Below, piece by piece: positions 28,998-56,170 of a stretch of DNA of 64,000 nt (the first letter of the stretch is position 1; every line of letters begins with the position of its first letter). The stretch is from IMG/VR virus record IMGVR_UViG_3300025141_000077, positions 712-64,711 of that record, one strand, 5' to 3'. The position numbers and the translations under genes are program-made. The stretch is from a virus (lineage: Duplodnaviria; Caudoviricetes). Below the pieces are notes generated by a model. That model searched no databases. It saw nothing but the letters and a program-made list of their open reading frames with translations, and was not told the DNA's origin.

Positions 28998-29271
28998 TGG
29001 CATCCTCCTGTAAACCTACAATGTATTCTTGCCACGCTTCTTCAAGTTCTTGTTCTGATATAAAATCATTAACTACTTGAGCATTTTGCTGTATCACACC
29101 TTCTACCTGACGATGGGATTGTTCTACATTCCCTAATCTATCTCCGAGTGTTTTTAATTGAGTAATGAGGAAATTCATATTAGTAAATACTAATTTGTCA
29201 TCATTACCAGCCTCAAATTGGGCTATCCAGCTTTCTAGTTCTTCAACTTTTCTTTCCAGTTTCTTTGTCAT
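28960..29271 (-). CDS. Coiled-coil hypothetical protein
   Basis: GAGGT SD; helical, Gln/Glu-rich. Confidence 0.65.
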   Translation of the reverse strand: MTKKLERKVEELESWIAQFEAGNDDKLVFTNMNFLITQLKTLGDRLGNVEQSHRQVEGVIQQNAQVVNDFISEQELEEAWQEYIVGLQEDANASEEGQEQEDN

Positions 29272-29279
29272 CTATAACC

Positions 29280-30350: not shown

Positions 30351-30562
30351 AACTCCTCCATTTCAACTACCCAAGAAGTAGGGATGCATATAAAATCTAC
30401 CCCATCTATATCAGAGTAATGATAGTTGATTATGATAGCTCTTTCACATTGAGCTACGACTTCCCCAATAGTTTCACAATATGATAAGTGATTACTAGGG
30501 TCTTTAATATCTATTTTACTCTGTTGAGTAGCGTTAGTTGCATCAAACCATTTAATTTTCAT
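30308..30562 (-). CDS. Small beta-barrel phage protein (possibly Sm-like)
   Basis: IKWFDA...ETIG...CIPTSWV pattern of a common viral family. Confidence 0.5.
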   Translation of the reverse strand: MKIKWFDATNATQQSKIDIKDPSNHLSYCETIGEVVAQCERAIIINYHYSDIDGVDFICIPTSWVVEMEELCLKDSESSVSRKE

Positions 30563-30572
30563 TAATGGTCCC

Positions 30573-30935
30573 CTACTCCCTAACACTTTCTTTCCACTCC
30601 TTGAACAATCCTGCCACTACAAATATATCATTATCTTCTGACCCGAAGTATTGACAATTTGATGGCGTTTCATTTACAAATATACCCTGACGTGGCCTAT
30701 CGAACAATAACCTATCATAAGGTATTTGTTGAATCTTTAACCAATTTTCAGTCTTTAGTTTTGTTTCCATTTCGTTTGAACGCTTGGTCCATATAGTTAT
30801 ATGATGACCTTGCTTCTTTAACCATTGCATAAATTCGGTTACATTGGCAATGGGTTTACATAAACCATAATCTGCATTAGGGGAACATATAACGTGCTCC
30901 ATTTCAAAAATTAGATTCATTGCATCATCCTCCAC
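30573..30935 (-). CDS. HAD-fold capsule-biosynthesis phosphatase-like protein with degenerate catalytic motifs
   Basis: FEMEHVIC in place of DxDGT; GHHITIWTKR; IPYDRLLFDRP; FVNE in place of IDD. Confidence 0.65.
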   Translation of the reverse strand: MEDDAMNLIFEMEHVICSPNADYGLCKPIANVTEFMQWLKKQGHHITIWTKRSNEMETKLKTENWLKIQQIPYDRLLFDRPRQGIFVNETPSNCQYFGSEDNDIFVVAGLFKEWKESVRE

Positions 30936-31023
30936 CTTAAATATTCTATCATTATAAAGGTCCAGAGTATAATAAAAATCATTATATCTAAATGATTTGT
31001 GCTTTCATACTCACTTAACCAAC

Positions 31024-32406
31024 TCATATACTTTTCCCTACAGTTTTTATCCACCTTTTCCACATTGGTCCTACTGCTTTCATCCAATCATAGTGTTTAA
31101 TAGTGTATTTACGAGCGTTTTTACCGTGCTCTTTTAGTACATCACGATTATGGTAATAATATTCAAAAGCTTCTGCTCCCTTTTGTTCGTCCCATAATGC
31201 CCTCATAGGGGCTGCTCGGATAGGAGTGTCCCACATCATATCTTTGTAAGGTATAAGGAATCCTCTATCAGACTCAATCATATTATCATCCCCATCTAAA
31301 CCGTGAGGGAATAACATTTCTGGAGGACATTGAGGTGAATCAGCTCCTACTAATTCATAACTAGTAGTGTAATTACATATTACATTAGGTTTACCACAAG
31401 ACATAGCTTCTACAGTAGGGATACCAAATCCTTCCCCACCCGTAGGTAATGCGTGGACATCCATCATATTATAAATATCTACCATCCCATCATCATCAGG
31501 GTGTTCTCCATTTTCTAAGTTCCCCATTGTAGGAGGTACCATATATTCTGCAATGTCAAACACTTTGTCACTAGACATATATTGTATATTCCATCCCATA
31601 TGGTCTTCCCAATGCATATGCAATAAGAGTTTAGCATCATCAGGGGTAAGGTTATTCTTTTCTACAAATAATTTAAAGGACCGCATTAATCGAGGAATAT
31701 GTTTGCGGTGTTGGTTTCGTGCCACACACCCAATCACAAAGGCATCATTAGGTCGAGGAATATCTCTTGGTTTAAAGAAATTTGTATCTACACCGTGAGG
31801 AATATAAGTAGATTTGTAACCATTAAAATCTTCTAACATTACAGATTGTCCATATCTGGACATTGCTACAGGATAATCTACGTGTTCTAAAGTACGTAAC
31901 CAGTTAGGAATAGAAGGTTGCCCATCAATAGGGATAATTGAACCTAATTTAAATCTAGGTTTCTGACCCACTTTGTAAGCCTTTCTTGCTAATCTAATAA
32001 AAGACTGTTGATTTTGCCACGTACCTTGTTCATCTACCATAGGTATGTTTAATCCTGATGGTTGTTTATGTTGTGTAACATAATCAAACATTTGGATATC
32101 TAAATGAGTAAAAACTAAATCTGGTTTAAACCCTTCCATCCATTGAGGGAAAGACTTTTCCCCAAACTTTTCTTCACCCGGATGCATTAAGGGAAGTATT
32201 TCAAAAGATACTTTCTTTTCTTCTTGTCCTAAAGGCCAAGGGGTTTCCCAAGAGGGAATATGTTGAGGGTTCTGACACCCTGCAAAACCTAAGGTATGAC
32301 CTTCTTCTGCAAATATACTAGCTATATTTCTTGTATTCGTCCCGAATCCTGTAGGAGCCCAAGGCGAATCACTGATTGGCATTATCCTGACCATTTTATC
32401 ACTCAC
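31024..32406 (-). CDS. GT-B (GT4) glycosyltransferase
   Basis: SDSPWAPTGFG, IPHGVD, RNQHRK, GEGFGIPTVEAMSCGKP motifs. Confidence 0.92.
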   Translation of the reverse strand: MSDKMVRIMPISDSPWAPTGFGTNTRNIASIFAEEGHTLGFAGCQNPQHIPSWETPWPLGQEEKKVSFEILPLMHPGEEKFGEKSFPQWMEGFKPDLVFTHLDIQMFDYVTQHKQPSGLNIPMVDEQGTWQNQQSFIRLARKAYKVGQKPRFKLGSIIPIDGQPSIPNWLRTLEHVDYPVAMSRYGQSVMLEDFNGYKSTYIPHGVDTNFFKPRDIPRPNDAFVIGCVARNQHRKHIPRLMRSFKLFVEKNNLTPDDAKLLLHMHWEDHMGWNIQYMSSDKVFDIAEYMVPPTMGNLENGEHPDDDGMVDIYNMMDVHALPTGGEGFGIPTVEAMSCGKPNVICNYTTSYELVGADSPQCPPEMLFPHGLDGDDNMIESDRGFLIPYKDMMWDTPIRAAPMRALWDEQKGAEAFEYYYHNRDVLKEHGKNARKYTIKHYDWMKAVGPMWKRWIKTVGKSI

Positions 32407-32600
32407 TGTTTGATAGCTATAGTGTCACTCTTGCTAACTATAACAGTTCCCTTATCTCCGGTCAGGTATATAAAATTATCATCATCGTCCACTATCTTTC
32501 CTCTTCCTACTTTAGTCTTATCATCTTCTTTCCATACCACTTTTACTTCTGCGTCTTTTAAAAAGGATGCTAATTTTTTATCATTTTCAGTTTCCATCAT
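32403..32600 (-). CDS. Putative Sm/LSm-fold protein
   Basis: 65 aa: short helix, then VKVVW..GKIV..DDNFIYL...VIVSKSDTIAI. Confidence 0.5.
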   Translation of the reverse strand: MMETENDKKLASFLKDAEVKVVWKEDDKTKVGRGKIVDDDDNFIYLTGDKGTVIVSKSDTIAIKQ

Positions 32601-32627
32601 TACACCTCCAAGGTGTATTATTAATCA

Positions 32628-33065
32628 CTAGTCCATTATATTTAAAGGTTCTGCTGTCTTGAATTGGTCCAGAGGTATAAATGCATAGTGATTTAATTCT
32701 AAAGCACCCCTGTCGGTACGAGCATTATATCCTAATTTAAATTTTGCATTACACATATCTAAATAACATACACCATTAGTAAAGTTTATTACAAAGAATA
32801 CTTTATTTCCCATACCAATGAGTTCTATTGCTTTAGCAACTTTAGAAGCGGGTACTATAGTTTCTTCATACGCATCTTTTGATATACGTCTTGATTTTAT
32901 TTCCACATAACATTGTTTACCATTTCTATACCCTAGATAATCGAAGTGGTCGAACTTGCCTAGCTTTTCAAAATCTTTTCCTAGCTCATCACCAATATGT
33001 TTGATGACCATCTTTTCACGACCGATTCCCCAGTCGTAGTCTTTTTTTACGTTTACTTTCTTCAT
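32628..33065 (-). CDS. PD-(D/E)XK endonuclease
   Basis: HFDY...YVEIKSR motif; start reassigned to MKKVNVKK at 33065. Confidence 0.75.
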   Translation of the reverse strand: MKKVNVKKDYDWGIGREKMVIKHIGDELGKDFEKLGKFDHFDYLGYRNGKQCYVEIKSRRISKDAYEETIVPASKVAKAIELIGMGNKVFFVINFTNGVCYLDMCNAKFKLGYNARTDRGALELNHYAFIPLDQFKTAEPLNIMD

Positions 33066-39753: not shown

Positions 39754-40075
39754 TCCCTTCTTTTTTTGGCGCTTCCTTTCCCTTTTTAAATAGCTCCGTT
39801 AAATCTTTAGGCAGACTGCCAATCATTGCAATTTTCTGCTCAAAGAATTTAACATAAGCTAGTAATATAATTTCATCTCGCTTTGACATTTTAATAGTGT
39901 TACTAATAGTGCTTAGACCTTGTATTATAGATGTTGGTTGCATTACATTAAACACTTGAATCCATTTTTCATAGACTGCTTTATCTCTGTCAGTAACAAG
40001 AAATTCATCTAAATCTATTTGACCCTCTTCGAGTCCTTTTAGGTGATTCAGGAATTCTTTAATCATTTTTTCCAA
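39725..40075 (-). CDS. Hypothetical protein
   Basis: GGTGG SD; operon continuity. Confidence 0.6.
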   Translation of the reverse strand: MEKMIKEFLNHLKGLEEGQIDLDEFLVTDRDKAVYEKWIQVFNVMQPTSIIQGLSTISNTIKMSKRDEIILLAYVKFFEQKIAMIGSLPKDLTELFKKGKEAPKKEGSEYDGTMFG

Positions 40076-40589
40076 CCACCTTCTTTCTATTTAAAAGTAT
40101 TGATAAATCATATCTCACTGGTTTAGATAATCGTTTAAGTTCAGTTCCTAGTGTTTCAATAACATTCCATTTGACTGATTTACGTTTTGCATCATCATAT
40201 ATCAGTGCCATTTGGTCAGGTCTTAATGCAAATACACGTTTATTGCGTGGTTCATCCTTTCTAATAAAGAACCAAGCTTTACCCCCAGCCTTTTCTAAAT
40301 CTAAAGCGTATTGTCTCTGATGTTCTGGGACTGCTGCTTTTTTATTATAATATAATGGAAATGAAGTTTTATTTCTGCTTGTTTTACACTCAATTAAAAT
40401 TGGTATTCCATTTTGCACTGCAAAGAAATCGCCGGGTTGTTTCTCCGAGATTGCTTTTTTAACGAAGCGAGATACGTCATTAGTATCTTGAATCCTAAAC
40501 CACCACCATCCGGCAGTGTCTAATGATTTTCTAATTTCCCATTCGAAATTCTTTCCTGTATAATTATTTGATTTCATCTTTATCTCCAT
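40059..40589 (-). CDS. Holliday junction resolvase (Hjc/RecU-like PD-(D/E)XK)
   Basis: GKNFEWEI, PGDFFA, LIECKTS and HQ..A...GG motifs. Confidence 0.8.
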   Translation of the reverse strand: MEIKMKSNNYTGKNFEWEIRKSLDTAGWWWFRIQDTNDVSRFVKKAISEKQPGDFFAVQNGIPILIECKTSRNKTSFPLYYNKKAAVPEHQRQYALDLEKAGGKAWFFIRKDEPRNKRVFALRPDQMALIYDDAKRKSVKWNVIETLGTELKRLSKPVRYDLSILLNRKKVVGKND

Positions 40590-40719
40590 AGAAATTATTT
40601 TTAGGTGCTTTATCTCTACCTAATCCTTTAGCGTAACAATCATCACAGACATACATTTCAAAACTTGATGTCCATAGAGCTACTCTATGACAGTATAAAC
40701 ACTCTAATCTTTTACTCAT
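40564..40719 (-). CDS. Zinc-finger microprotein (51 aa; not in ORF track)
   Basis: CLYC...CDDC; ATGA-coupled to the methyltransferase. Confidence 0.65.
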   Translation of the reverse strand: MSKRLECLYCHRVALWTSSFEMYVCDDCYAKGLGRDKAPKNNFYGDKDEIK

Positions 40720-41600
40720 TCAAAATCCTCCAGCGATGTATTACCTTGAAATGTTAATTCCATTGCTAACTTATGATAATCTTCAGATAATTCTATTCCT
40801 ATTCCCTTTCTTCCGAGTTCCCGAGCAACTCTACAAGTTGTCCCGCTGCCCGAAAACGGGTCTAACACTATGTCGCCGGGTTTACTCCCAGCAAGTATAC
40901 ATCTTTTAGGTAATTCAGGTGGGAATACAGCAATATGAGAGTTTCTTATTGCTTTAGGTGCAATAACCCATACGTCTCTTGCGTTCTTTCCTTTTGTTGG
41001 GTCACCTACTATCAATCTTTCACCTTTCTTATTGTATTTCTTTGATGGTTTACTAACTAATGGCTCTCTTATGGCATCCATATCGTAGTAGTATTGTTGA
41101 TTCTTCGACAGCAAAAATATAAATTCGTGCGACCGTGTCGGTCTGTTCCTAACGCTTTCAGGGATGGGGTTAGGTTTGTGCCATACAATATCACAACGCA
41201 AATACCACCCTGCTTCTCTGAGGGCAAATGCAGCCACCCACGGCACACCAATGAGGTCTCGGGCTTTGATATTAGCTCCTGTTTTATTGACCTTAGTGTT
41301 GCGTGTTCCTCTCTTATCACTGCCTGTAGCACCGCCTGTGTTTCCAGAAAACCCGGCATAACTATCTCCTATGTTCAGCCATACTGTTCCATCCTCTTTT
41401 AATTTTGGTTTAATTACTTCGAATAGTCTTACTAAATTCGCAGCATAATCCTCTACGGTAGGTTCCGCTCCAAATTGGTTCTCATTACCGTAATCACGTA
41501 ATGCCCAATAAGGTGGGGATGTCACAACAGTTTGTATTGATTCATCCTCTAAAGTTTTCACTACTTCAACGGCATCTCCCTGTAGTAACTCAGGCTTCAA
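40716..41600 (-). CDS. Beta-class amino DNA methyltransferase (SPPY, probably m4C), orphan
   Basis: Motif IV TSPPYW precedes motif I DPFSGSGTT; likely TTG start at 41600. Confidence 0.92.
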   Translation of the reverse strand: MKPELLQGDAVEVVKTLEDESIQTVVTSPPYWALRDYGNENQFGAEPTVEDYAANLVRLFEVIKPKLKEDGTVWLNIGDSYAGFSGNTGGATGSDKRGTRNTKVNKTGANIKARDLIGVPWVAAFALREAGWYLRCDIVWHKPNPIPESVRNRPTRSHEFIFLLSKNQQYYYDMDAIREPLVSKPSKKYNKKGERLIVGDPTKGKNARDVWVIAPKAIRNSHIAVFPPELPKRCILAGSKPGDIVLDPFSGSGTTCRVARELGRKGIGIELSEDYHKLAMELTFQGNTSLEDFE

Positions 41601-41752
41601 TGAGTATGCTCCACAAACGCTTTGCATTTCGCACAGGTTATATATTTATTCCAATGGTCTCTCTTCATAAATTGTTTTTCCTGTCTACTTACTTCTCTAA
41701 TACCACACATTGTGCTACCAGTAGCTCTGTTTAACATATGTCTCTTTCTCAT
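41597..41752 (-). CDS. Zinc-finger microprotein (51 aa; not in ORF track)
   Basis: H...MCG...TCAKC; coupled at both ends. Confidence 0.6.
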   Translation of the reverse strand: MRKRHMLNRATGSTMCGIREVSRQEKQFMKRDHWNKYITCAKCKAFVEHTH

Positions 41753-41855
41753 TCTTCAATCTCCCATTCTATATTATAGAAATTACAACGACCGTTCATT
41801 AAATCGTCGTATAAATCTTTAGAAATTTCTGCCTTTATTTTTATAAATTCACACA

Positions 41856-42182
41856 TTATTCATCCTCTGCCGGTATCTCAAACCATCCTTGTGCTATACA
41901 ATCCTCTAACCATCTATCGTGTTCTTTTAACTGAACTTGATAGTAAATCATCCCACACATATTATCTATGTAATCTAATAGTAGTTTTTCTTTGCTTTGA
42001 GCACCAGATACCATCTCTTCTAATTCACGTATCTGTTTATTTTTTATTTCTTGATACTCTTGTATCGTTATCCCTTGCTTTTCATTTTCTTTAATGATTT
42101 TATCTGCTTTATGTAGACTGGATGACATTTGCTCACACAATTTACACATATATTTATACTTTTCTTCTAGTTTTTCACTCAT
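41856..42182 (-). CDS. Coiled-coil hypothetical protein
   Basis: Operon continuity. Confidence 0.6.
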   Translation of the reverse strand: MSEKLEEKYKYMCKLCEQMSSSLHKADKIIKENEKQGITIQEYQEIKNKQIRELEEMVSGAQSKEKLLLDYIDNMCGMIYYQVQLKEHDRWLEDCIAQGWFEIPAEDE

Positions 42183-42500
42183 CTAAATACCCTTTTACCA
42201 TCTTAATACTGTCTCTTAAAGATTCATTATCTGTTGTGTCTGCAATTTCAAATTCCATATCACATAACATCTTATATGATGTCTTTTTATCCAGATAACG
42301 TAATAATATTCCTACTAAATGTATTCCTTCACCTATCGTTGTTACCATTGCTTTCCTCCCTGTAATTTTTAAAATAATATGAAACCGCACTCATCTTCTC
42401 ACAATCAACACATTCATAGTAGCACCCTATTATTGTAGAGTCTCGCTTTACTATGTTTTTATGTTCACATTTATTTTGTTTCTTTAAATGCTCTTCTAGT

Positions 42501-42608
42501 TTACGGGTTGGGGTCATAACACTCTCCACATCTTAAGCAACACTTGTGCCATTCTAATGGTATACCGCAAGCGGGACACCCTTCTTCATCGTGCTCGGTT
42601 ACACTCAT
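42501..42608 (-). CDS. CPxCG zinc-finger microprotein (35 aa; not in ORF track)
   Basis: MSVTEHDEEGCPACGIPLEWHKCCLRCGECYDPNP. Confidence 0.6.
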   Translation of the reverse strand: MSVTEHDEEGCPACGIPLEWHKCCLRCGECYDPNP

Positions 42609-42763
42609 TATCCCAAACACTCCACACAAAAGCACGGACTATAATCATCATTCTGCCATTTTACACAATCAGGGTGTTCAATCTTCATTCGTTCTTTGAA
42701 TCTGTCCATCTCTTCTTTATTGGCTCGTTCACATCTCTCACAAGAGCAATCCACACAGACCAT
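42608..42763 (-). CDS. Cys-rich microprotein (51 aa; not in ORF track)
   Basis: MVCVDCSCERC...HPDC...CFCVEC; coupled at both ends. Confidence 0.6.
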   Translation of the reverse strand: MVCVDCSCERCERANKEEMDRFKERMKIEHPDCVKWQNDDYSPCFCVECLG

Positions 42764-43126
42764 TTATTTCTTTACCTTCCTAAACCAGTTGCGCTGTGCA
42801 ATTCTTATTACAAATCTCAGCAATGCAAAACTATAAACTGAATTCAGTTTAATTCTTCCATTAATAGGATGGTCTAGTTTAGCTACTCTTTCATTATATT
42901 CTTCATCGCTCTCAACGTGTCCTTTACAATCGCCTTCACAATCGGGACAATGAATAAAATTACGGTGGATTTGCTTCTCATCTGACCGTGTTTCTATTGT
43001 TATACTTTTCTCACTCTCATCATACTCGAAAGTAGCATACTTAAGCTCTCTTTTAATTACTACTGTATCCTCATCATCTGTTTCCAGCAGATAGTGTTCA
43101 TCTTCATTTATTTCTTCTTCAGACAT
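42764..43126 (-). CDS. Acidic hypothetical protein with a CPDC motif
   Basis: GAGGT SD directly after the structured RNA. Confidence 0.65.
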   Translation of the reverse strand: MSEEEINEDEHYLLETDDEDTVVIKRELKYATFEYDESEKSITIETRSDEKQIHRNFIHCPDCEGDCKGHVESDEEYNERVAKLDHPINGRIKLNSVYSFALLRFVIRIAQRNWFRKVKK

Positions 43127-43140
43127 TTTTACCTCTTTGT

Positions 43141-43270
43141 TGGAACAAGCACACCGGAACAGGGTGTGCCGGGAAAAACAAGTAATAAAACCCGTTGGCT
43201 TGATTTTTAAGGTGTATCATTTAACCCTCTTCCGCATTGAGGGGGCCATACCCATTAATGTGCTTATTCC
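43141..43270 (-). ncRNA. Candidate ~130 nt structured RNA with paired ends
   Basis: TATA at 43293-43300 predicts a start near 43270. 5' GGAAUAA pairs with 3' UUGUUCC-A; adjacent hairpin GCACACC/GGUGUGC; internal stems CCCUC/GAGGG and CGGG/CCCG. Confidence 0.55.
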
Positions 43271-43287
43271 GATTATTAGAATACCTA

Positions 43288-43306
43288 TCTTGTATATAAA
43301 GGTTAT
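43288..43306 (-). promoter_or_regulatory. Archaeal BRE-TATA promoter
   Basis: - strand AATAACCTTTATATACAAG. Confidence 0.7.
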
Positions 43307-43515
43307 TATAAGCATTTTCTTTCATAGTCCCTTCTGCTCATATATCTACCTTTCGCACGAAGCCTAATGTTGCATCCATTACACCACGTATGAGTTTTAT
43401 CCCATATGCTGTGACATTTAGAACACCAATTATATTTTTCATATCCACCTCGCCGAAAACTCGGACCTAGCCGTGCTTTTTCACCGTTGTCGTAGCCGTT
43501 GTAGTCTTTGCTCAT
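43306..43515 (-). CDS. Zinc-ribbon small protein
   Basis: CSKC...CNGC..LR. Confidence 0.65.
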   Translation of the reverse strand: MSKDYNGYDNGEKARLGPSFRRGGYEKYNWCSKCHSIWDKTHTWCNGCNIRLRAKGRYMSRRDYERKCL

Positions 43516-43651
43516 TTATCCATTCCTCTCTTGTTGTATCTTTATAATGCCATTGTCGGCTGTAATGTAAATCCCAGCGACAACCATCACAATAAATTGT
43601 TAAAAAATCTTCACCTATAAAATCGCTCTTACAATGATAACAGTTATTCAT
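43481..43651 (-). CDS. Zinc-finger microprotein (56 aa; not in ORF track)
   Basis: CYHC...CDGC; GAGGTGA SD. Confidence 0.65.
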   Translation of the reverse strand: MNNCYHCKSDFIGEDFLTIYCDGCRWDLHYSRQWHYKDTTREEWINEQRLQRLRQR

Positions 43652-43743
43652 TTAATCACCTCATCAACACAAACATAGCATAATTGGTCTATTGAAATAG
43701 GACATTCATATTTACATCTACGGCATATTCCTATAGTAGCCAT
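43648..43743 (-). CDS. Zinc-finger microprotein (31 aa; not in ORF track)
   Basis: MATIGICRRCKYECPISIDQLCYVCVDEVIK. Confidence 0.65.
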   Translation of the reverse strand: MATIGICRRCKYECPISIDQLCYVCVDEVIK

Positions 43744-43826
43744 TAATCACTTCCACAATGAGGGCAGTTAAACTTGTGGTGTTGCTTCATTCCTATATAA
43801 TTTCCTTTACATCTTATACATTTCAT
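43743..43826 (-). CDS. CPxCG zinc-finger microprotein (27 aa; not in ORF track)
   Basis: MKCIRCKGNYIGMKQHHKFNCPHCGSD; GAGG SD. Confidence 0.65.
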   Translation of the reverse strand: MKCIRCKGNYIGMKQHHKFNCPHCGSD

Positions 43827-43978
43827 TTTATTTTCCTCTTTATTTTTACTCTCTTCTTCGGCACCCTAGTAGGTGCTTCTCTGTATGCCTGATTAAAGTC
43901 TATAAAACTACCACCCTTCTCAGCGGAGGGAGGTAAAGTATATCCTTCATACGGTATCTTAGTTGCTCTCTTTTTCAT
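43823..43978 (-). CDS. Basic microprotein (51 aa; not in ORF track)
   Basis: MKKRATKIPYEGY...KKRVKIKRKIK; ATGA-coupled. Confidence 0.5.
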   Translation of the reverse strand: MKKRATKIPYEGYTLPPSAEKGGSFIDFNQAYREAPTRVPKKRVKIKRKIK

Positions 43979-44147
43979 TTCTCTTTAATATCCATATTGT
44001 TTTCTCAAGCTTACTTAATCTCTCATCAATCTCAGCTCTTAGTGTGTATATATCCCACAATATTCCATCATACGGGGAGCTGGCTAAGTCAATCTCAGTC
44101 TCGCCGCATATGTAATCCAGCATTTGTTTCTTACTTTTTTCGTTCAT
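43959..44147 (-). CDS. Hypothetical protein
   Basis: Operon continuity. Confidence 0.55.
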   Translation of the reverse strand: MNEKSKKQMLDYICGETEIDLASSPYDGILWDIYTLRAEIDERLSKLEKTIWILKRNEKESN

Positions 44148-44397
44148 TCTTTCTCTCTAAAACATTTTGTCTTATACAGTTTGGTGGGTCTGCTTTACGT
44201 GGGTCATAAACTACTGGCCCTACTTCTAACATCCCGCTCTCATCAACCATCTCATATTCTCCGATGTCGTCATCTGAAATTAAAGTATCCAGCAAATCGT
44301 CATCTGTAATGATTTTATTTTTCATTAACTCAGCTACAAATAATGCAAACAGTTTCTTCTCTGCTTCGTTCATATAATTTATGTTGTATTCTTTCAT
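44131..44397 (-). CDS. Hypothetical acidic protein
   Basis: Operon continuity. Confidence 0.6.
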   Translation of the reverse strand: MKEYNINYMNEAEKKLFALFVAELMKNKIITDDDLLDTLISDDDIGEYEMVDESGMLEVGPVVYDPRKADPPNCIRQNVLERKNERKK

Positions 44398-44399
44398 AT

Positions 44400-45134
44400 T
44401 TAAATCTTTGGATGCACGTTAGCACCTGCTTTTGTCCACCGTATTATCTCCCCGTCTTTCCATACACAATAGGCTGCTCGTAAACACTCGTTATCGTGAG
44501 CGTATTGGTCAAACCATTCAAAGAACTCATTATTATCGACTAAATAAGTCTCCATTAACCATACATATTGTGCTCTTATTTTAAAGTTAGGATTTCCTAT
44601 CAATCTATCGTAGTCTATTAAATGCTCCTGAGCCCATAGGTCAAACATCAGCAAACTTTCAGGTATATTTATTCTAATATTCTGTTCTTGTGAAGCATAC
44701 ATTAAAATATGATTAATGCTTCCTATAACAAACGCATATTTACCATCATTTAATCTAATAGGGTAATGCTCATCATTCTTGCCCTGCATTGCTCCCCGTT
44801 TATATAATAAAACTTCTCCCTCCATCTCAGCGAGACCATTAATTAATCTTTGTATAACAGGTTGAGGCACGTGTGCTCTTCTTCCACCACCTGAGCGCCA
44901 TACATAATTACGACCATTCTTTCTATATAATGCTCCATATCCTTTGGTTCTCATTGTGTTTCTCGCTATCATAAATCGGAGCGACTCATCACTTTCAATT
45001 TGTCCTGTTCTTTTCATTAAAGTGTAGCAGGTTGTTTCCTTTTGCCATTCAGCAAGAATGTAATTGAATGTGATATCCGGTTCTTGTGCTGCAAAATCTT
45101 CTAAATTATTTACGTTTATTCTGTATAGTTGCAT
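44400..45134 (-). CDS. Hypothetical protein (244 aa)
   Basis: GGAG SD; no family recognised. Confidence 0.7.
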   Translation of the reverse strand: MQLYRINVNNLEDFAAQEPDITFNYILAEWQKETTCYTLMKRTGQIESDESLRFMIARNTMRTKGYGALYRKNGRNYVWRSGGGRRAHVPQPVIQRLINGLAEMEGEVLLYKRGAMQGKNDEHYPIRLNDGKYAFVIGSINHILMYASQEQNIRINIPESLLMFDLWAQEHLIDYDRLIGNPNFKIRAQYVWLMETYLVDNNEFFEWFDQYAHDNECLRAAYCVWKDGEIIRWTKAGANVHPKI

Positions 45135-45291
45135 CGTGCTCTCCTTTCTTTGGTAATTTTTTGTAGGTGCTGTGTCCTGTTCCTCTCGGATTCTTCTTCT
45201 TCAGTAATCTTTTACGCCAATATGATGACGGATAATATGCTTTGATAAGGTCTTTATCTATCTCTGAAACCTTCTTACGTTTGCGCTTCAC
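45106..45291 (-). CDS. Small basic protein
   Basis: Lys/Arg-rich; GTGA overlap with the upstream stop. Confidence 0.55.
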   Translation of the reverse strand: MKRKRKKVSEIDKDLIKAYYPSSYWRKRLLKKKNPRGTGHSTYKKLPKKGEHDATIQNKRK

Positions 45292-45677
45292 TTTCTTCTT
45301 AACCTCTTAAGCATATTCACGTCTTTCTTATTCATTCCACCAGCATACTTTCCTTTCATATCTCTGCTTCGTTTCATTGAACTTGGATTCCACATATTTG
45401 TGTCACGCTTCATTCTTTCTTTATTCGCTTTAGTGTGTTGGACATATTTCCACTCACCGTCTGAACCCCTAAATCGAGCGGTTCTGTATTCTTCTGTTAA
45501 AACTTCGCTTGGGTCCCACTGATTCTTACACAGCGAACAATAGTAATGGGCGTGGTGATTATTATCTTCAGCATTATACTTCAATTTGTTTGAAGATGCT
45601 TCTTTACACTCGGGGCAAGTCACCTTAACCTGCCCTCGCTTCCCCTTAGGCACTAAAGCCTCCCATTTCATCGTCAT
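45288..45677 (-). CDS. Zinc-ribbon protein with basic tail
   Basis: CPEC...YYCSLCKNQW. Confidence 0.7.
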   Translation of the reverse strand: MTMKWEALVPKGKRGQVKVTCPECKEASSNKLKYNAEDNNHHAHYYCSLCKNQWDPSEVLTEEYRTARFRGSDGEWKYVQHTKANKERMKRDTNMWNPSSMKRSRDMKGKYAGGMNKKDVNMLKRLRRK

Positions 45678-46971
45678 CTAAACTGCTGTAGTCATTTTCT
45701 AAGACATTCCAGCTTTTTAGGTAGTCCTTTATGTCAGCTATAGCAATTACAGCATCATAATTATTTTGTGATACCGGCACATAGTCTTCTAACATATCGC
45801 ACTCAACATAGTAAGTGACAAAGCCATTAGGGATAACAATAGACTTGCCTGAACTGCTGACTCTTACTTGTTCATCTTCAGCTATCCTTTCAAGGCCGGA
45901 ATATTGTCCCTCTTCTGCTTCAATACGGTCTAGCATATCATAAAACTTCATCAACTTTCCTTCTGAAGCGTCATCATCATCCAATGCTGCTGACCAACCA
46001 CTTGAGTTATTACCGTAGTATTTGATACCGCCGTAGTATTCGTATGCTCCTGCACCTTGATACGACCAATTGTATACTGCTCGAGTTGGTTTAAATTCTA
46101 CTTGCTCTGGATGTTTAGTAAAATGCCCGTGTAATTTAGGTAAGAGATGCTGTATAAATCCGAGTGACCTCATTAGGTGCTCCCATATTACATATTCGCT
46201 ACCTGAATGTGCATTGTAATAACCAGCAAATAGATTTATGCCGTTTATATTTAGTTCTGAAACTATTTCACTAACATCAGATATAGAGCCGTTGCACGAT
46301 TTGAGGCCAAAATCTTTACCCCATTCATTAAGCATTGTTTCCATTACATCTGAGCACAACTTGTAATCACTGTTTTGTGTAATTATATCAGTATTGCCGT
46401 TTCTATCAATAGTTATATTGAATACGACATTCTTGAATTTACCGCTGTGATGTTCCATTGCGTGTCTTGCTCCATTACATCCTGTTTCTTCTGATACGGT
46501 CAGAAGTCCGCTTAGTGGTATGTCTATTGCTTTATTGTTTATTGTTTTCAATACTGCAAAGACACCGCACTTGTCATCGCCGCCAATTACCTGATTGTTT
46601 GTTGAGCGCAATACAGTTCCTTTCTTCTTCTGATGCTCGACTATTATGTCTGGAGCAGCAGACCCGACTGTATCCATATGCGCATTCAGCAATATTCTGT
46701 TATCACCTTTAACGTGATTTGCGAAATAGATATTTCCGGCAGTGTCTATCTCATATTCTATCTCAGCGTCACGTAGATATTGTGTCACGTATGCAATCAT
46801 AGCGTGTTCATCTCCGCTTGGACTAAAGATAGAGAACATAGAGCCGATTAAGTCTATATCACTCATTGCTGTCATATTTTCAGGTATCTTGGTAATGATG
46901 CTTTTACTTGCCTTTTCTTCAATAGTCTTTTCAGCTATTGCTTTTGTTGGTTCTTGCTCTTCACTACTCAT
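45646..46971 (-). CDS. M20/M28-family zinc peptidase/amidohydrolase
   Basis: SPSGDE, AHMDTV, GGDDKCG, SEETG, IDR, GSISD, GYYNAH metal-ligand motifs. Confidence 0.9.
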   Translation of the reverse strand: MSSEEQEPTKAIAEKTIEEKASKSIITKIPENMTAMSDIDLIGSMFSIFSPSGDEHAMIAYVTQYLRDAEIEYEIDTAGNIYFANHVKGDNRILLNAHMDTVGSAAPDIIVEHQKKKGTVLRSTNNQVIGGDDKCGVFAVLKTINNKAIDIPLSGLLTVSEETGCNGARHAMEHHSGKFKNVVFNITIDRNGNTDIITQNSDYKLCSDVMETMLNEWGKDFGLKSCNGSISDVSEIVSELNINGINLFAGYYNAHSGSEYVIWEHLMRSLGFIQHLLPKLHGHFTKHPEQVEFKPTRAVYNWSYQGAGAYEYYGGIKYYGNNSSGWSAALDDDDASEGKLMKFYDMLDRIEAEEGQYSGLERIAEDEQVRVSSSGKSIVIPNGFVTYYVECDMLEDYVPVSQNNYDAVIAIADIKDYLKSWNVLENDYSSLDDDEMGGFSA

Positions 46972-48682
46972 TTTCGTTTACCTCTATGGTATAATATTCA
47001 GTGCCGCCTATAAATTCTTGGGCAGCATAACGTAGATTTGGACTTGCTTCTACATCTCTTCTGATGTTGCTGTATCTAATTCTTTGGTCCTCGTCTTTGT
47101 AATATGTAAATTCTGCTTCACTACTATCAGGTTTGCTTTCCCAAAATGGCGACCAAGTCAGCGTTTCAAGATTTACTCTTGTGCCTTCCCTTTTAACTTG
47201 TAATTTGGTGCTATCTCTTAAGAAATTATAAATGCTTGAATCGTGCCTTGAATTTCTATATGCAATTAATTCATATCCCTCAGCAAATGACTCTTTTGCC
47301 CATTCATTTAATGCTTGGAAGAGTCCAACATACACTTCTTTTTTAGCGTTTGTGTGCTGGGATAAATATATTCTTGAAGGAGCAATAAACATAGGATGCT
47401 CATCATCCCATTGCTCTTTAAATAGTCTAACAACTGCACGGCCAATCATATTGCCGTCATCATCTCTAAGGATAGTCAGCAAATGTGGATTAACCACCAT
47501 ATCAAATGCTCCAAACGCATATGCTTGGTTGTTTCCCCTTGTTTGACAACTTCTTAATGCTTCACCATTGTTATAGTTCTCCATCAGCGTATCTAAATCA
47601 AAGCCTATTTGAACACCTACTTTTGTATTAACTACATTAGTTTGGTATTGCTGGAAATGAGTATCCCAATTGCTTTGTTTATAATCTGCATATTGTGGGA
47701 ATCTTACCTTGTAAGCACGAGAGAATATCTGATTGATTGCTCTCTTTAAGTCTGCGCCGTCGTCTGTCTTGTTTTCTTTAAGCATAGATGTTATTCCATC
47801 TACGCCGACATACTCAAGCGAATAATTATAATAATTTTGGCCGAGTTCTTGCATACTAATTTCATCACCCTTAACCACGCCGCCTTCTTTTCTGTTATAA
47901 TATTTAATATGCTTTCTAAATAAATGCCTCAATGGGTGATAAAGCCCATAAGCCTTATGCTCTTGTAAAAATGTGTCAAGTTGCATCATTTCATAGAACA
48001 TTTGCGCTGTTCTTTTGTAAACAGGGCTGCTTAATGTTATTTGTCCTTTCCACCAAGCACCACCATCATCTGATGCTGCTGTTTGTGGTCCTAAGCAATC
48101 TTTATTAATTAAATAAGGGTTATATTCATACTCATCTAAAGCATAACCATAAAATTCTTTTATCGCACTCATCTCTGAAGCACCTGCACGTCTGTAAGCG
48201 TCTTTCAAATGCATACTGCTTACACTTATAGTGCGTGATGCTTCTTGTGCTATATCTCTATGACCGCTTCGATTATAACAATCTTCACATCGCAGTTCAT
48301 AATAATGGTCAGTGCCGATTTCATAAAAATAAATGTCCGCTCCACACTGTTCACAACAACAGCAAGTAGAATCATTGCAGTTATGACATACTATCTCACC
48401 GCTGTATTCACTGTCATTATAATAATCGCCGTTTCGCATATCAATAATTTCGCCGCAACTATCACAGTCGCTGTAATCTCCACCGTGTCGGCAGTCGTGA
48501 CATACGTCACCGCCCGGCACAGGATGCTTATCATCAGATGCTGTAAATTCATCACTACAATCGTAGCATTCCCATAAACTATTACGGCAAGAAGTGCATA
48601 CGCATTCATAGTTTGCCGTGGATTCTATATTGTCAGAATTTTCTTCTGCTCCACATATCTCACACTCTGCTGTATTACACAT
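46964..48682 (-). CDS. Multi-CxxC N-terminal zinc-finger array fused to a putative PcfJ/GNAT-like domain
   Basis: Eight CxxC pairs in the first ~140 aa; later RSCQ...IGRAVVR...RIY pattern. Fold call is tentative. Confidence 0.6.
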   Translation of the reverse strand: MCNTAECEICGAEENSDNIESTANYECVCTSCRNSLWECYDCSDEFTASDDKHPVPGGDVCHDCRHGGDYSDCDSCGEIIDMRNGDYYNDSEYSGEIVCHNCNDSTCCCCEQCGADIYFYEIGTDHYYELRCEDCYNRSGHRDIAQEASRTISVSSMHLKDAYRRAGASEMSAIKEFYGYALDEYEYNPYLINKDCLGPQTAASDDGGAWWKGQITLSSPVYKRTAQMFYEMMQLDTFLQEHKAYGLYHPLRHLFRKHIKYYNRKEGGVVKGDEISMQELGQNYYNYSLEYVGVDGITSMLKENKTDDGADLKRAINQIFSRAYKVRFPQYADYKQSNWDTHFQQYQTNVVNTKVGVQIGFDLDTLMENYNNGEALRSCQTRGNNQAYAFGAFDMVVNPHLLTILRDDDGNMIGRAVVRLFKEQWDDEHPMFIAPSRIYLSQHTNAKKEVYVGLFQALNEWAKESFAEGYELIAYRNSRHDSSIYNFLRDSTKLQVKREGTRVNLETLTWSPFWESKPDSSEAEFTYYKDEDQRIRYSNIRRDVEASPNLRYAAQEFIGGTEYYTIEVNENE

Positions 48683-48703
48683 TTAATTTGCTCCTGAAAC
48701 GAA

Positions 48704-48781
48704 TGGACCTGCCGACCGGATTTGAACCGGTGTCCGAGCAACAAGATTGCCCGATGATGGGCCGGACTACACTACGGCAGG
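48704..48781 (-). tRNA. tRNA-like gene, 78 nt with encoded CCA; anticodon position reads CTT (nominally Lys), atypical
   Basis: Acceptor CCTGCCG/CGGCAGG-T-CCA; D-arm GTGTAGTCCGGCCCATCAT; anticodon arm GGGCA-ATCTTGT-TGCTC; 4 nt variable loop; T-arm ACCGG-TTCAAAT-CCGGT. Confidence 0.85.
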
Positions 48782-48855
48782 AACTATTTCGCTTCATTTT
48801 ATTATTCTCGTTGCTTTTTCTCAGATTGCTCACTGTGAACTGCTCTATCACCTTC

Positions 48856-48873
48856 CTTATATATAAAGACTTC
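48856..48873 (-). promoter_or_regulatory. BRE-TATA promoter for the tRNA-like gene and downstream operon
   Basis: - strand GAAGTCTTTATATATAAG. Confidence 0.7.
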
Positions 48874-49107
48874 TCAGCGTCTGTTTTTTCTCTCTTAACT
48901 TTGCCGGGAACGAAACCAGAATCGGAGGAGCAGGGAAAACAATAACCTGCTTTAATTCTAACTTCGTTCCTATCGGCGTTCATCTTTTATTATTCTTCGC
49001 TCCAATAATAACATTCAAACCAAGCATCATACCAATCTATCATCTGTGCTCTCTATAATGTAATTGAAATGCTACGAACATATACCAAGCTTCATTGCTT
49101 CCTATCA

Positions 49108-49251
49108 TTAAAAATGTCCTGTGCTCATTACGTTATCCATTGCTTTCTGATGCACAGCATAACAGTCCTTACACATATCGGCAGCTTGCCAAAATTCTAA
49201 TGCTGGTTTACCACACAGCAGTTTACATTTCTTTTGCTCTTTTTTGTTCAT
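49108..49251 (-). CDS. Zinc-finger microprotein (47 aa; not in ORF track)
   Basis: CKLLCGKPA...CKDCY; TAATG-coupled at both ends. Confidence 0.6.
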   Translation of the reverse strand: MNKKEQKKCKLLCGKPALEFWQAADMCKDCYAVHQKAMDNVMSTGHF

Positions 49252-49400
49252 TAAAGCAACTCCATTACTTCGCCCCATTGCTCGTCATCAATAGTGCCGT
49301 TTTGATATAACGGCGCAGTCCATAAACTGCCGTCAATCATTGCATATATGTTGCCGGGGAATAGGTTTATGCTGAATGTTTCTTCTTTGCTTGGTATCAT
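49251..49400 (-). CDS. Microprotein (49 aa; not in ORF track)
   Basis: MIPSKEETFS...WGEVMELL; coupled at both ends. Confidence 0.55.
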   Translation of the reverse strand: MIPSKEETFSINLFPGNIYAMIDGSLWTAPLYQNGTIDDEQWGEVMELL

Positions 49401-54131: not shown

Positions 54132-55067
54132 TTACTTTTTCTTACTATATATACCTTTTGGCTCACAGGGCTTTTTGTAGAAGGCACACCACTTACAAAG
54201 TGTTTGAGGTACTAATTCATACTGCTCAATGTCGTCCCCCCTTTTCTTTAATTCGTCGTGTATGCCTTTGATAAGGTCCCGCGCTTCTTCGATTACACCG
54301 TCGTTAATGGCGACAAAATAGCAGTCGTCATACCGCAACCAATCGATACCCGCGAATTTTGGGGTTACTCCGGTTTCTTCTTGGTACAATAGAGCATATA
54401 TTATTAATTGGCGGTAGTAGTCGTCAGGTAACCAGTTTCCATATCGCTTACTGGTTTTATAATCAACTATAGAGATATTACCCTCGAAGTCTTTTTGGAT
54501 AACATCTATAATACCCATTATTTTGTATTCTTTATTATGAACTCGCATTTCAGAAAATGTGGGTTTAAGTTGTTTAAAGGCCATATCTTTAGAACGAGCT
54601 ACACCCCAGTCCATTAGTTCGTGCAGCTTCTTTTCGACACGGTGGCAGAAGTTAACGAGTAGGTCTATCGTTTCCCCTTCCATACGGTCTCCGTCAATGT
54701 CGGGGTTCTTCCATAACCACGGCATTTTCTTTTTACGTTCTGTCCATTTCTTACGAAATTCGAGAATCGCCCACTCCTGCGGTTCGGCGTTTCGCCATCG
54801 ACTAGGATATTTAAATTCTTTTTCAAACAGTTCTTCAAGTATTTCGTGAACTATGGTACCCCGGAAAAGGTGCAGGGTTAATTGGTCAGGTAACTTTTCG
54901 ATATATTTGTAATAGAATTGACGAGGACAATGTAAAAAAGTATTTATTTTAGATGGTGATAGACGATTAATACTTGGTGTCCAGTCTATATCTTCAGTTT
55001 CAGGTTCTGTTTCAGTATTCACACTGACAGTGTACGTGACATTAGAGTCACTTTGAGTTTCTTTCAT
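54132..55067 (-). CDS. Cas4/AddB-like PD-(D/E)XK exonuclease with Fe-S cysteines
   Basis: LSPS..CPR, GTIVH, GIID, VDYKT, QLIIY, CKWC.....C; no CRISPR or other cas genes. Confidence 0.88.
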   Translation of the reverse strand: MKETQSDSNVTYTVSVNTETEPETEDIDWTPSINRLSPSKINTFLHCPRQFYYKYIEKLPDQLTLHLFRGTIVHEILEELFEKEFKYPSRWRNAEPQEWAILEFRKKWTERKKKMPWLWKNPDIDGDRMEGETIDLLVNFCHRVEKKLHELMDWGVARSKDMAFKQLKPTFSEMRVHNKEYKIMGIIDVIQKDFEGNISIVDYKTSKRYGNWLPDDYYRQLIIYALLYQEETGVTPKFAGIDWLRYDDCYFVAINDGVIEEARDLIKGIHDELKKRGDDIEQYELVPQTLCKWCAFYKKPCEPKGIYSKKK

Positions 55068-55088
55068 ATTTTTCTAACATATCTAGAA

Positions 55089-55201
55089 TCTATATAAAGG
55101 TTTGGGATTACTACATACGTTAAGCAAAGAAAGCATATGTTAAGGTATTTTGGTACTATATAGTACTATACTATAGAGCTATGAGGAAAAACTTTATAAG
55201 T
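55089..55201. promoter_or_regulatory. Divergent promoter region at the early/late strand switch
   Basis: - strand CCAAACCTTTATATA (55091-55105); + strand GAAAAACTTTATAAG (55186-55200); palindrome GTACTATATAGTAC (55153-55166). Confidence 0.7.
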
Positions 55202-55222
55202 AAATCCAACCAAGTTTAATTT

Positions 55223-56170
55223 ATGGTTCCTGATGATTATGGTGCAATCAGTGTTATTTCAGACGAAGAGAAAGAGATGTTAGGCATTGGTGGTTCCAAA
55301 AAACCTGATGAAGAGGAAGAAAAACTTTTCGAGACTATTGGCAAAGCTGCTGATAAGATAGGAGAAACAAAAGTAGGGCAAAAAATTGGAACCATTATAA
55401 CCGTCGTTTTACTGGCGATATTGAGTGGGGGGGCCAATATGTCTATCATACACGATTATTTTAATGGTGATGAAGAAATTGGTCCCATCGGGGGTTGTTT
55501 ACAAACAGATGCTACTAACTATAACCCTCAAGCTACGTTTGATGATGGAAGTTGTAACTTCTTAATTATTATATATGGATGTACTAACTCTGAAGCTGAA
55601 AATTATGATGACCAAGCTACGCACGATGATGGACGTTGTGTAGTTTTAAACGACGGTAATGGTAGTGCAAATGAAACGGCCATTTATGGTTGTATGGATA
55701 TAGATGCTAATAATTATGATGATAAAGCCACCGAAGATGATGGTTCGTGCGATTATGAGGATGAATATGAAGAACCTGAATGTAATTCTACATCAGTACT
55801 TTTTTATCCCGGATGGTACGACCAAGAGACAGAAAATATGTCTGTTTACTGGGTAAACGAAACAGCTGAAGGCATATCCGTACTGACAGATATAGATGCT
55901 GAGTGTAGTGATTATAATGCGTCTGTATTAGTTTACGTAGACGTTTGGCACGAAGAGTCTGGTGATTATAATTGGACAGATATATATTTAACAATCAATG
56001 GTGATAATTGGGATAACCACTGGTTTAATTTTACTTTTGAAGAACTTAACGAAACAGAAGGTGAATGGTCTATGTGGGTAGCACTACTCGTATGGGACGA
56101 GGTAGATGAAGAATATACATTCCAACAACAGTTTGATATCCCAATGATAAGAGTGGAGGCAGAGGTATGA
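55223..56170 (+). CDS. Membrane-anchored acidic surface protein with three GCxxxxAxNY..A..DDGxC repeats
   Basis: One TM helix, three disulfide-type repeats, ~10 N-x-S/T sequons. Confidence 0.8.
   Translation: MVPDDYGAISVISDEEKEMLGIGGSKKPDEEEEKLFETIGKAADKIGETKVGQKIGTIITVVLLAILSGGANMSIIHDYFNGDEEIGPIGGCLQTDATNYNPQATFDDGSCNFLIIIYGCTNSEAENYDDQATHDDGRCVVLNDGNGSANETAIYGCMDIDANNYDDKATEDDGSCDYEDEYEEPECNSTSVLFYPGWYDQETENMSVYWVNETAEGISVLTDIDAECSDYNASVLVYVDVWHEESGDYNWTDIYLTINGDNWDNHWFNFTFEELNETEGEWSMWVALLVWDEVDEEYTFQQQFDIPMIRVEAEV

Follow-up and report, generated by a model that had tools for sequence, protein, structure and literature searches.

In the early and late transcripts of phage T7, the hairpins that are left after cutting by RNase III define and stabilise the ends of the mRNAs. 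To our knowledge, archaea have few known cis-acting RNA structures and archaeal viruses hardly any, and the marine tailed viruses of archaea are known solely from metagenomes. Among the titles listed in a limited literature search, none dealt with structured RNAs from the leaders or intergenic regions of these viruses. A survey of the IMG/VR virus collection reported 8,495 candidate structured RNAs, which are covarying intergenic motifs, many of them upstream of genes (PMC10690425, 2023); the portions of its text available to us name no leader motif of archaeal viruses. Here we describe an RNA element in the tailed-virus record IMGVR_UViG_3300025141_000077 (Duplodnaviria; Caudoviricetes), of which we analysed a stretch of 64,000 nt (positions 712 to 64,711; hereafter the window), approximately the whole of the 64.7-kb record. 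The element is read on the minus strand, within a gap of 179 nt between a zinc-ribbon open reading frame (ORF) of 69 amino acids (aa; 43306-43515) and an ORF of 120 aa (42764-43126). An earlier reading of the letters alone (the sequence-only reading) had flagged it as a novel RNA of about 130 nt with its own promoter and a tRNA-like acceptor end.

We find that the flagged stretch does encode a folded RNA module that is conserved in evolution, but not a tRNA mimic. It occurs in two copies in the window and sits at boundaries between co-directional gene blocks, just before or just behind the next promoter. We rate the module as a new RNA family, with no counterpart in Rfam, of a known general kind, namely the viral cis-acting intergenic or leader hairpins.

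A conserved folded RNA at gene-block boundaries

The features on which the sequence-only reading was built, i.e. a TATA box, two complementary arms, a hairpin, an unpaired A and a GAGGU motif, are all present on the minus strand where it had placed them (Table 1). Of the checks that it had named, a search of Rfam, a comparison with shuffled sequences and a look for covariation among homologues bear out its claim of a novel structured RNA, which lies on the gene strand and belongs to no Rfam family. A scan of the whole window against Rfam 15 gave no match at the gathering score, and with E up to 10, the region 42900-43500 returned a chance-level snoRNA of 12.5 bits as its sole match. The 130-nt RNA has a minimum free energy (MFE) of -45.9 kcal/mol, compared with -31.85 +/- 3.58 kcal/mol for 200 dinucleotide shuffles (z -3.92), none of which is as stable. 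Both the MFE structure and the ensemble choose a long terminal helix, P1 (pairs 1-13 at probabilities of 0.89-1.00, pair 14 at 0.06). This is the 14-bp helix that had been listed as an alternative fold, and it proves to be the conserved conformer of the family. P1 is uninterrupted, and an internal loop of about 3 x 6 nt adjoins a second helix, P2, of 4-5 bp with a loop of 10-18 nt; the archaeal bulge-helix-bulge motif, two 3-nt bulges on opposite strands with 4 bp between them, was not seen, as judged from the folds with no dedicated search tool.

Protein-guided searches with the 120-aa gene, the first gene behind the element, yielded 37 metagenome loci and 15 loci on viral contigs. In each of these 52 loci we inspected the 260 nt ahead of the gene, and we classed the 41 distinct upstream sequences by eye. 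Six of these carry the element at what we call locus 1: the window (to which the upstream sequence of L125 is identical), L126/L127, L128, L132, L161 and L001/L141/L162. They differ in length, with type A (window, L126/L127, L128) measuring 130 nt in the window and 128-129 nt in L126/L127 and L128, type B (L132, L161) 93-94 nt, and type C (L001/L141/L162) 59 nt. All six variants fold with the long terminal helix, the five homologues at z values from -2.9 to -6.5. The order at locus 1 is upstream stop codon, TATA box, 22-24 nt, element, Shine-Dalgarno motif and 120-aa gene; the 22-24 nt between TATA box and element are not conserved, and P1 ends 3-8 nt before the Shine-Dalgarno motif in all six variants. 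The RNA thus directly precedes the Shine-Dalgarno motif of an operon, as the sequence-only reading had held, and this operon continues downstream of the 120-aa gene with several small ORFs with CxxC motifs, a methyltransferase and a resolvase. DNA runs share the two variants of L126, U5 to C and A106 to G.

R1, a covariance model derived from the type C element of locus 1 (59 nt; L001/L141), finds a second copy in the window at 48907-48970 (-), with 41.8 bits and an E-value of 1e-8. Copy 2 folds at -25.3 kcal/mol (z -5.95), and four members of this locus 2 have z values from -3.8 to -6.0. Its orthologues are found in L377 and L378, upstream of homologues of a 572-aa gene, and in L385. Locus 2 reads, in order, the last small ORF of the upstream block, the element, 25-40 nt, a consensus TATA box and the next block, and the element precedes the TATA box in all five sequences (window, L377, L378, L385 and L382). 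In the reverse direction, a model built solely from three locus-2 sequences (R2; window copy 2, L377, L378) recovers the type C element of locus 1 (L001; 31.6 bits, E 2e-5). R2 also finds the element in the viral record G002 (L002 65-157, the same place as L381 1501-1593), where ORFs of 105 aa (zinc finger) and 237 aa flank it and GGAG follows P1 at a distance of 8 nt. A third model, R3, adds G003 (L382; 29.9 bits) and L385 (30.4 bits) as members, so that the family comprises 12 distinct sequences from related marine virus contigs.

The type A and B elements were assigned to the family by orthology and by their common P1 base, P2 and loop, and owing to their long insertions, none of the three models recovers them at full length with the correct P2. 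Applied to type A, R1 matches P2 alone in the window (19.3 bits), L126 and L127, and spans L128 with P2 misplaced. Five viral records were searched for copies: the window and G001 have two each, G002 has two matches (one of them marginal, E ~1), G003 has one and G004 none, so that two loci per genome are seen in two of the five records (window and G001). A small ORF across copy 2 (48675-48983) was considered as coding and rejected, as it runs through the TATA box and a tRNA gene, and its frame is lost in L377 and L378.

The members share a common architecture. P1 comprises 11-17 bp of the form GGAA...UUCC and is followed by an A-rich 5' junction (J1) that tolerates insertions, a short G/C-rich P2 with a U-rich loop, and a 3' junction (J2) that is pyrimidine-rich in most members (CUCC, GUUCC). 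The distance from arm to arm ranges from about 32 to 101 nt. Among the 12 sequences, P1 occurs with seven different inner sequences, while its first four pairs, GGAA/UUCC, are almost invariant. P2 takes the compensatory forms CGGG/CCCG, CAGG/CCUG and, in G003, CUCG/CGGG. The motif UUGUUU is present in 11 of the 12 sequences and lies in the P2 loop in 10; in L381 it falls into the P2 loop only under the model alignment and into the 5' junction under the single-sequence fold. The insertion domain of type A is not found in types B and C or at locus 2; RNAalifold on the window, L126 and L128 shows compensatory changes from G-C to A-U (columns 24/74) and from C-G to U-A (columns 28/46) within it.

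MAFFT misaligned the helices, which are of unequal length, and we therefore used an anchored three-sequence alignment, model-fitted alignments and a hand-defined helix table. In the anchored MAFFT alignment of the three locus-2 sequences, 6 of the 22 pairs vary at both positions, and 90.6% of the cells are paired, against 33-53% when one strand is slid; 1 of 500 shuffles, which ignore the relatedness of the sequences, scores as high. In the model-fitted alignment of six sequences, which leans towards the structure to which it was fitted, 12 of the 21 pairs vary at both positions, 94.4% of the cells are paired against 39-52% when slid, and none of 500 shuffles reaches this value. P1 and P2 thus covary across the relatives. 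The 165 cells of P1 hold 139 Watson-Crick pairs, 24 G.U, two U.U and not a single A.C. This asymmetry between 24 G.U and 0 A.C indicates that P1 was selected as sense-strand RNA and not as a DNA palindrome or terminal inverted repeat, and we take the pattern of substitutions to mean that the RNA structure is under selection in sense transcripts.

Table 1. Coordinates of the two copies of the element and of neighbouring features in the window
Feature	Position	Strand	Details
BRE/TATA-type promoter (BRE, B recognition element)	43293-43306	-	ATAACC, then TATA box TTTATATA at 43300-43293; read from the sequence
Predicted transcription start	43270	-	first G of P1, with C before it; predicted from TATA spacing and the C-G step in six variants
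P1, 5' strand	43257-43270	-	GGAAUAAGCACAUU; from the fold; conserved with changes across 12 sequences
J1 and type-A insertion domain	43195-43256	-	helices UGGC/GCCA, CCCUC/GAGGG, UGAU/AUCA
P2 hairpin	43170-43194	-	CGGG (43194-43191), 17-nt U-rich loop UUUUAUUACUUGUUUUU, CCCG (43173-43170)
J2	43156-43169	-	pyrimidine-rich, GCACACCCUGUUCC; includes 5' half and loop of the T-arm-like hairpin
T-arm-like hairpin	43149-43169	-	GCACACC (43169-43163), loop CUGUUCC, GGUGUGC (43155-43149)
P1, 3' strand	43142-43155	-	GGUGUGCUUGUUCC; then unpaired A43141
Shine-Dalgarno motif	43131-43135	-	GAGGU, five bases past A43141
Start codon	43124-43126	-	ATG; opens the 120-aa ORF
Conserved 120-aa gene	42764-43126	-	first gene behind the element; homologues in 37 metagenome and 15 viral loci
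Copy 2	48907-48970	-	P1 17 bp (48970-48954 with 48923-48907), J1 AAA, J2 UCCUCC
Copy 2, P2	48930-48950	-	GCAGG/CCUGC (48950-48946 with 48934-48930), loop UUAUUGUUUUC
Consensus TATA box	48860-48867	-	about 40 nt past copy 2; heads the block with tRNA-Lys (48704-48781) and the 572-aa gene

Searches beyond these loci added few relatives. A blastn search of 42700-43700 against GenBank phages gave no match. In IMG/VR, the 19-mer of the P2 loop had two matches, both unrelated by context, the 14-mer of the 3' arm had at least 118 chance matches and was uninformative, and a gapped P2 pattern had 77 matches, of which L225 was the sole true one (the genome of L001 and G001's own contig). A 15-mer from the flank of locus 2 had 20 matches; leaving out L225, R3 was run on 19 of them and found the element only in L391 (the contig of L377) and L385. 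R2 did not find the element in 101 Poseidoniales genomes, and a protein-guided scan of species genomes for the 120-aa gene gave no relative.

The remaining homologues of the 120-aa gene lie behind other leaders. Eight sequences have leaders with AAGCA repeats (type D) and one has a G+C-rich leader (type E), four relatives have just 41-49 nt from TATA box to ATG, eight have no spacer, two are truncated, L159/L160 are unclassified, and eleven distant homologues sit behind bacterial-type -35/-10 boxes. The leaders of type D (L136, L142-L148, L151, L152) and type E (L139) are matched by none of the three models and show no significant similarity to any other intergenic region of the window, and they were left out of the family. 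In those of type D, a direct repeat (TAATAGAGCA or AATTAAGC) occurs two or three times, and a near-palindrome, GCTTAATTAAGC, lies just ahead of the Shine-Dalgarno motif; that of type E measures about 120 nt, with 154 nt from TATA box to ATG.

A related contig also bears on the limits of the element. A 783-nt contig from run X24, which is only guessed to be an RNA run, covers 43112-43271 and loses its similarity to the window precisely at 43271, having 225 other letters in place of 49 from there on. The 5' edge of the element, which lies at this position, is thus marked as a recombination boundary. In X24 (window 43271-43321) as well as in runs X3 and X4 (43314-43320), the spacer with the promoter is swapped for 225 or 180 other letters, while the element itself and the upstream ORF are retained.

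Promoters, host and genome

Archaeal promoters have a TTTAWATA box whose centre lies about 26-27 nt before the transcription start, a purine with a pyrimidine ahead of it. At locus 1, the TATA box TTTATATA begins 30, 30, 30, 31, 32 and 31 nt ahead of the first G of P1 in the six variants, and a C precedes this G in each, which places the predicted start at the first nucleotide of the element. The claim that the RNA has a promoter of its own, with a TATA-type box spaced to start at this G, is thereby borne out in all six. A 19-nt promoter block, ATAATAACCTTTATATACA, is identical in L001 though the flanking ORFs diverge, and motifs resembling AACCTTTATATA also occur upstream of other genes in the window. 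These have TTTAWATA 38-46 nt ahead of the ATG, with a Shine-Dalgarno motif between the two, and a pair of divergent genes, 55067 (-) and 55223 (+), begins 30-31 nt past the TATA motif and is apparently leaderless. The two genes of this pair (window 55040-55260) are a PD-(D/E)XK/Cas4-like nuclease (-) and a 315-aa ORF (+).

In a sigma-70 scan, the site at the element scores 9 of 12, and sigma-70-like sites are not enriched in the region (18 found against 24.7 expected). The 19-mer of the D-arm of the viral tRNA-Lys matches 120 stretches in species genomes, and all 80 titles listed are archaeal, namely Halobacteria, methanogens, Thermoplasmata, Poseidoniales, marine group III and DPANN. These D-arm matches, the leaderless TATA-spaced genes and the lack of sigma-70 enrichment together indicate an archaeal host, which in turn makes it reasonable to read the promoter motif as a TATA box. 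A host among the marine Thermoplasmatota is plausible. Searches with the major capsid protein, with the family B DNA polymerase (PolB) and in a protein atlas gave no clue to the host, and the record has no close relative among GenBank phages.

The record encodes a terminase, a portal, an HK97-type capsid protein and a tail tape-measure-like protein, as well as a family B DNA polymerase, a class II ribonucleotide reductase, a DNA methyltransferase and a RecU-like resolvase. A sugar-modifying block at 23282-32406 (-) comprises glycosyltransferases, an NAD-dependent epimerase/dehydratase and methyltransferases. At about 32600-32650 (-), a consensus TATA box, AACCTTTAAATA, is followed by a short leader, ACACCUUGGAGGUGU, in which a hairpin, drawn by eye, would bury the Shine-Dalgarno motif GGAGG of the next ORF. 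The tRNA-Lys at 48704-48781 (-), the only tRNA that ARAGORN calls in the window, has the anticodon CTT, an archaeal-type D-arm and a CCA end that is encoded in the DNA; the Rfam scan of the window did not report it at the gathering score. The metagenome record L125 (143,640 nt) is identical to the window over the 231 bases compared, yet its length is more than double the 64.7 kb of the virus record; the virus record may be a fragment, or L125 may be a concatemer or mis-join.

Small ORFs of 31-69 aa with paired CxxC motifs flank both RNA copies (window 42300-43750 and 49108-49278, minus strand), and the 69-aa one is kept beside locus 1 in types A-C. The 120-aa protein itself belongs to no Pfam or PHROG family and has no PDB profile match below an E-value of 0.02; its AlphaFold model, with a mean predicted local distance difference test (pLDDT) score of 70, gives no PDB match in Foldseek at E up to 0.001. 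Its conserved core, IKxELKxATFEYDE ... LNKxYAFxxxRFVxRxAQRNW, is also found in the distant homologues L166-L173. There, the gene lies 7-10 nt behind a bacterial-type promoter, TTGAC-N17-TATAxT, and would be leaderless in a bacterial setting.

Proposed function and rival explanations

The reading that we favour, tentatively and at somewhat less than even chances, is that the element is a cis-acting mRNA 'punctuation' hairpin, which would mark and protect the ends of mRNAs. The transcript from the locus-1 promoter would start with the first G of P1, with just three or four free bases from the helix to the Shine-Dalgarno motif, so that the helix beginning at position +1 could block decay that depends on the 5' end, while the ribosome-binding site is left free. 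At locus 2, and in read-through transcripts at locus 1, the helix would halt 3'-to-5' trimming and thereby fix the ends of the neighbouring messages. The U-rich loop and the junction would be a probable landing site for an RNA-binding protein of the host or the virus. Neither copy in the window has a T-run behind P1, so that a transcript containing the element should continue; at copy 1, P1 is followed by AACAAAGAGG, with no T-run up to the Shine-Dalgarno motif, and a transcript begun at 43270 should thus continue into the 120-aa gene. As to the nuclease, PF14622, the RNase III family, turned up in none of 3 and none of 61 Poseidoniales genomes (incomplete samples, from an order not established as that of the host), compared with 8 of 14 control genomes, and no match to the RNase III family was seen among the window proteins scanned. 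As the family was not found in the Poseidoniales genomes searched, a different nuclease, or none, would be involved.

Several observations weigh against this proposal. Plain end protection leaves the conservation of the GGAA/UUCC base and of the U-rich loop unexplained, and copy 2 does not lie at a predicted start, so that a cap-like stem at the 5' end cannot be the whole role. None of the sequencing runs listed is recorded as RNA; among the contigs of four runs compared, which gave sequence variants, the 783-nt contig of the presumed RNA run showed no transcript ends, and both the start and the ends are predicted only. The element is dispensable, as some relatives of the 120-aa gene have a TATA-to-ATG distance of 41-49 nt, an unrelated leader or no spacer at all. 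The family counts only 12 distinct sequences from few lineages; the loop motif is not universal among them (L385 has AUGUUGCG), the 3' junction is missing in G003, and the covariation figures come from shuffles blind to relatedness and, for the six sequences, from an alignment fitted to the structure. Finally, the identity of the host is no finer than 'archaeal, with a euryarchaeal-type tRNA'.

Alternatively, the module could control transcription at unit boundaries, either as a regulated archaeal terminator or attenuator, or as an antitermination RNA resembling the nut and put sites of phages lambda and HK022. Both copies in the window lie exactly at boundaries of co-directional blocks beside TATA boxes, one being promoter-proximal and the other behind an upstream gene, an arrangement that recalls nutL/nutR of lambda and putL/putR of HK022. 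Oligo-T is the intrinsic termination signal of archaea, and the most conserved single-stranded part of the element is T-rich (TTGTTTTT in copy 1, TTGTTTT in copy 2). A stop in the loop, however, would leave the 3' strands of P2 and P1 unmade, yet both covary. The T-runs are just 3-5 long (3 in type B and G003), none follows P1, and a terminator scan of 40000-47000 with a bacterial-type rule lists three sites, none of them at the element. For an antiterminator, moreover, there is no known downstream terminator to overcome. We consider this explanation unlikely as a whole, and improbable in its boldest form, in which the module would be an RNA that programs the archaeal transcription machinery at unit boundaries as a nut/put-like punctuation or antitermination site. 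The U-rich loop, held out by P2, would then contact either the RNA polymerase during elongation or a termination factor, aCPSF1/FttA for example, and this contact would decide whether the transcription of one block enters the next. If this were true, no RNA of this sort would have been described before from an archaeal virus, and it is only if the element acts on the archaeal transcription machinery that we would regard it as of high interest; otherwise its interest is moderate. The element gives a handle on how marine archaeal tailed viruses split long co-directional gene blocks into messages, and its minimal forms are short, from 59 nt (L001 type) to 64 nt (copy 2).

The hairpin might instead be an operator for an RNA-binding protein, such as the adjacent small zinc-ribbon proteins or the 120-aa protein, that sets the translation of the gene starting shortly behind P1. 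Its loop, junction and helix base are conserved while the interior of the helix drifts, which is the pattern of a hairpin recognised by a protein; a Shine-Dalgarno motif follows P1 by 3-8 nt not only in the six locus-1 variants, but also in G002, and small basic CxxC ORFs flank the element in every genome looked at. At locus 2, however, the element is set apart from the next start codon by a promoter and 80-220 nt, no nucleic-acid-binding fold or family is recognised in the 120-aa protein, and no pairing between element and Shine-Dalgarno motif is conserved, all of which leaves this a rather unlikely account. Sequestration of the Shine-Dalgarno motif by the element was likewise dropped, as there is no conserved complement, and so was pairing of the loop with the 3' region of 16S rRNA, which would be imperfect.

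There is also little to commend a small stable trans-acting RNA that is cut from long transcripts and acts through the U-rich loop and the CUCC-like junction. Such a candidate would gain from the compactness and great stability of the element, its conserved single-stranded motifs and its two copies, and the break in homology at 43271 in the X24 contig marks it as a separate evolutionary unit. But there is no terminator after the element, it was not found in the 101 Poseidoniales genomes, where no host counterpart or target was identified either, and RNase III, the usual cutter of such hairpins, was not found in the 61 Poseidoniales genomes.

Far less tenable is the processed tRNA-mimic RNA, with an acceptor/T-arm minihelix, that the sequence-only reading had proposed together with a possible switch between two conformers. 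Both conformers can indeed be drawn in the window sequence, and the A-to-G change in L126 and L128 retains the T-arm-like hairpin with a G.U pair. Yet all seven pairs of this hairpin have a probability of 0.000, and the forced '7 bp + hairpin' conformer, at -34.6 kcal/mol, is about 10 kcal/mol worse than the forced 14-bp helix at -44.2 kcal/mol. The hairpin is present in the type A sequences only (3 of the 12 distinct members, the other nine being without it) and lacks the T-loop consensus. Nor is there a tRNA-like acceptor end: the two C's at the 3' end of P1 pair with G1 and G2, which leaves no free 3' NCCA end, and the locus-2 members end in UUCC-CGGC or UUCC-CCAC, so that a CCA tail is not conserved. 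ARAGORN calls no tRNA or tmRNA at 43141-43300, and Rfam is equally empty there. Thus, the mimic and the switch are largely refuted, while the 14-bp conformer stands. The P2 loop resembles the anticodon loop of tRNA-Lys in some members only, and mimicry of that loop was rejected, since the C of CUU is not conserved (CUUGUU at locus 1 and in L378; AUUGUU or UUUGUU elsewhere).

Least credible of all is an inverted repeat acting as DNA, be it a mobile element like a miniature inverted-repeat transposable element (MITE), a cruciform or operator half-sites at the promoter, for although the element has terminal inverted repeats, is intergenic, occurs in more than one copy and overlaps the predicted start, a frequent archaeal repressor site, with its 5' arm, the G.U/A.C asymmetry of P1 is that of a one-stranded RNA, the arms differ between copies and lineages yet stay complementary at widely varying spacing, and instead of the many near-identical copies and strand-symmetric mismatches of a MITE, we found few diverged copies at loci that are orthologous across genomes, not scattered, with one true match among the 77 of the IMG/VR motif scan.

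Comparison with known systems

The closest analogues of the proposed punctuation hairpin are the RNase III sites of T7 and the 5' stabiliser hairpins of bacteria. Like the T7 hairpins R0.3 and R1.1, the element is viral, lies in leader or intergenic parts of long co-directional transcripts, and is built from a lower helix, an asymmetric internal loop, an upper helix and a loop. Unlike them, it would work in an archaeal host, has a P1 of only 11-17 bp and a U-rich loop with a conserved sequence, and is known from sequence alone. With the 5' stabilisers (the ompA 5' untranslated region, Bacillus phage SP82 and the aprE leaders), it shares a helix at or near position +1 and, behind this helix, a short free segment that holds the ribosome-binding site. 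These stabilisers, however, counter the bacterial nucleases RNase E and RNase J1, whereas the start of the element is predicted and its copy 2 does not lie at a 5' end. The conserved loops of the element, in contrast to the stabilisers, suggest a specific partner.

Other systems share fewer features with it. The nut sites of lambda and the put sites of HK022 are likewise paralogous, structured, cis-acting sites within one virus, one of which lies just behind a promoter and the other past the first gene of a further unit. In contrast to these, the element has no boxA-like part and no known downstream terminators and would face an archaeal polymerase, and any effect on elongation is hypothetical. 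The resemblance to tRNAs and viral tRNA-like structures lies in a stack of a 7-bp helix and a 7-bp hairpin (loop of 7 nt), which can be drawn in the window but is energetically disfavoured there and comes with neither the T-loop consensus nor a conserved CCA. Finally, the element is of the same kind as the candidate RNAs from IMG/VR, which are covarying intergenic motifs of uncultivated viruses, and their catalogue may contain it (PMC10690425).

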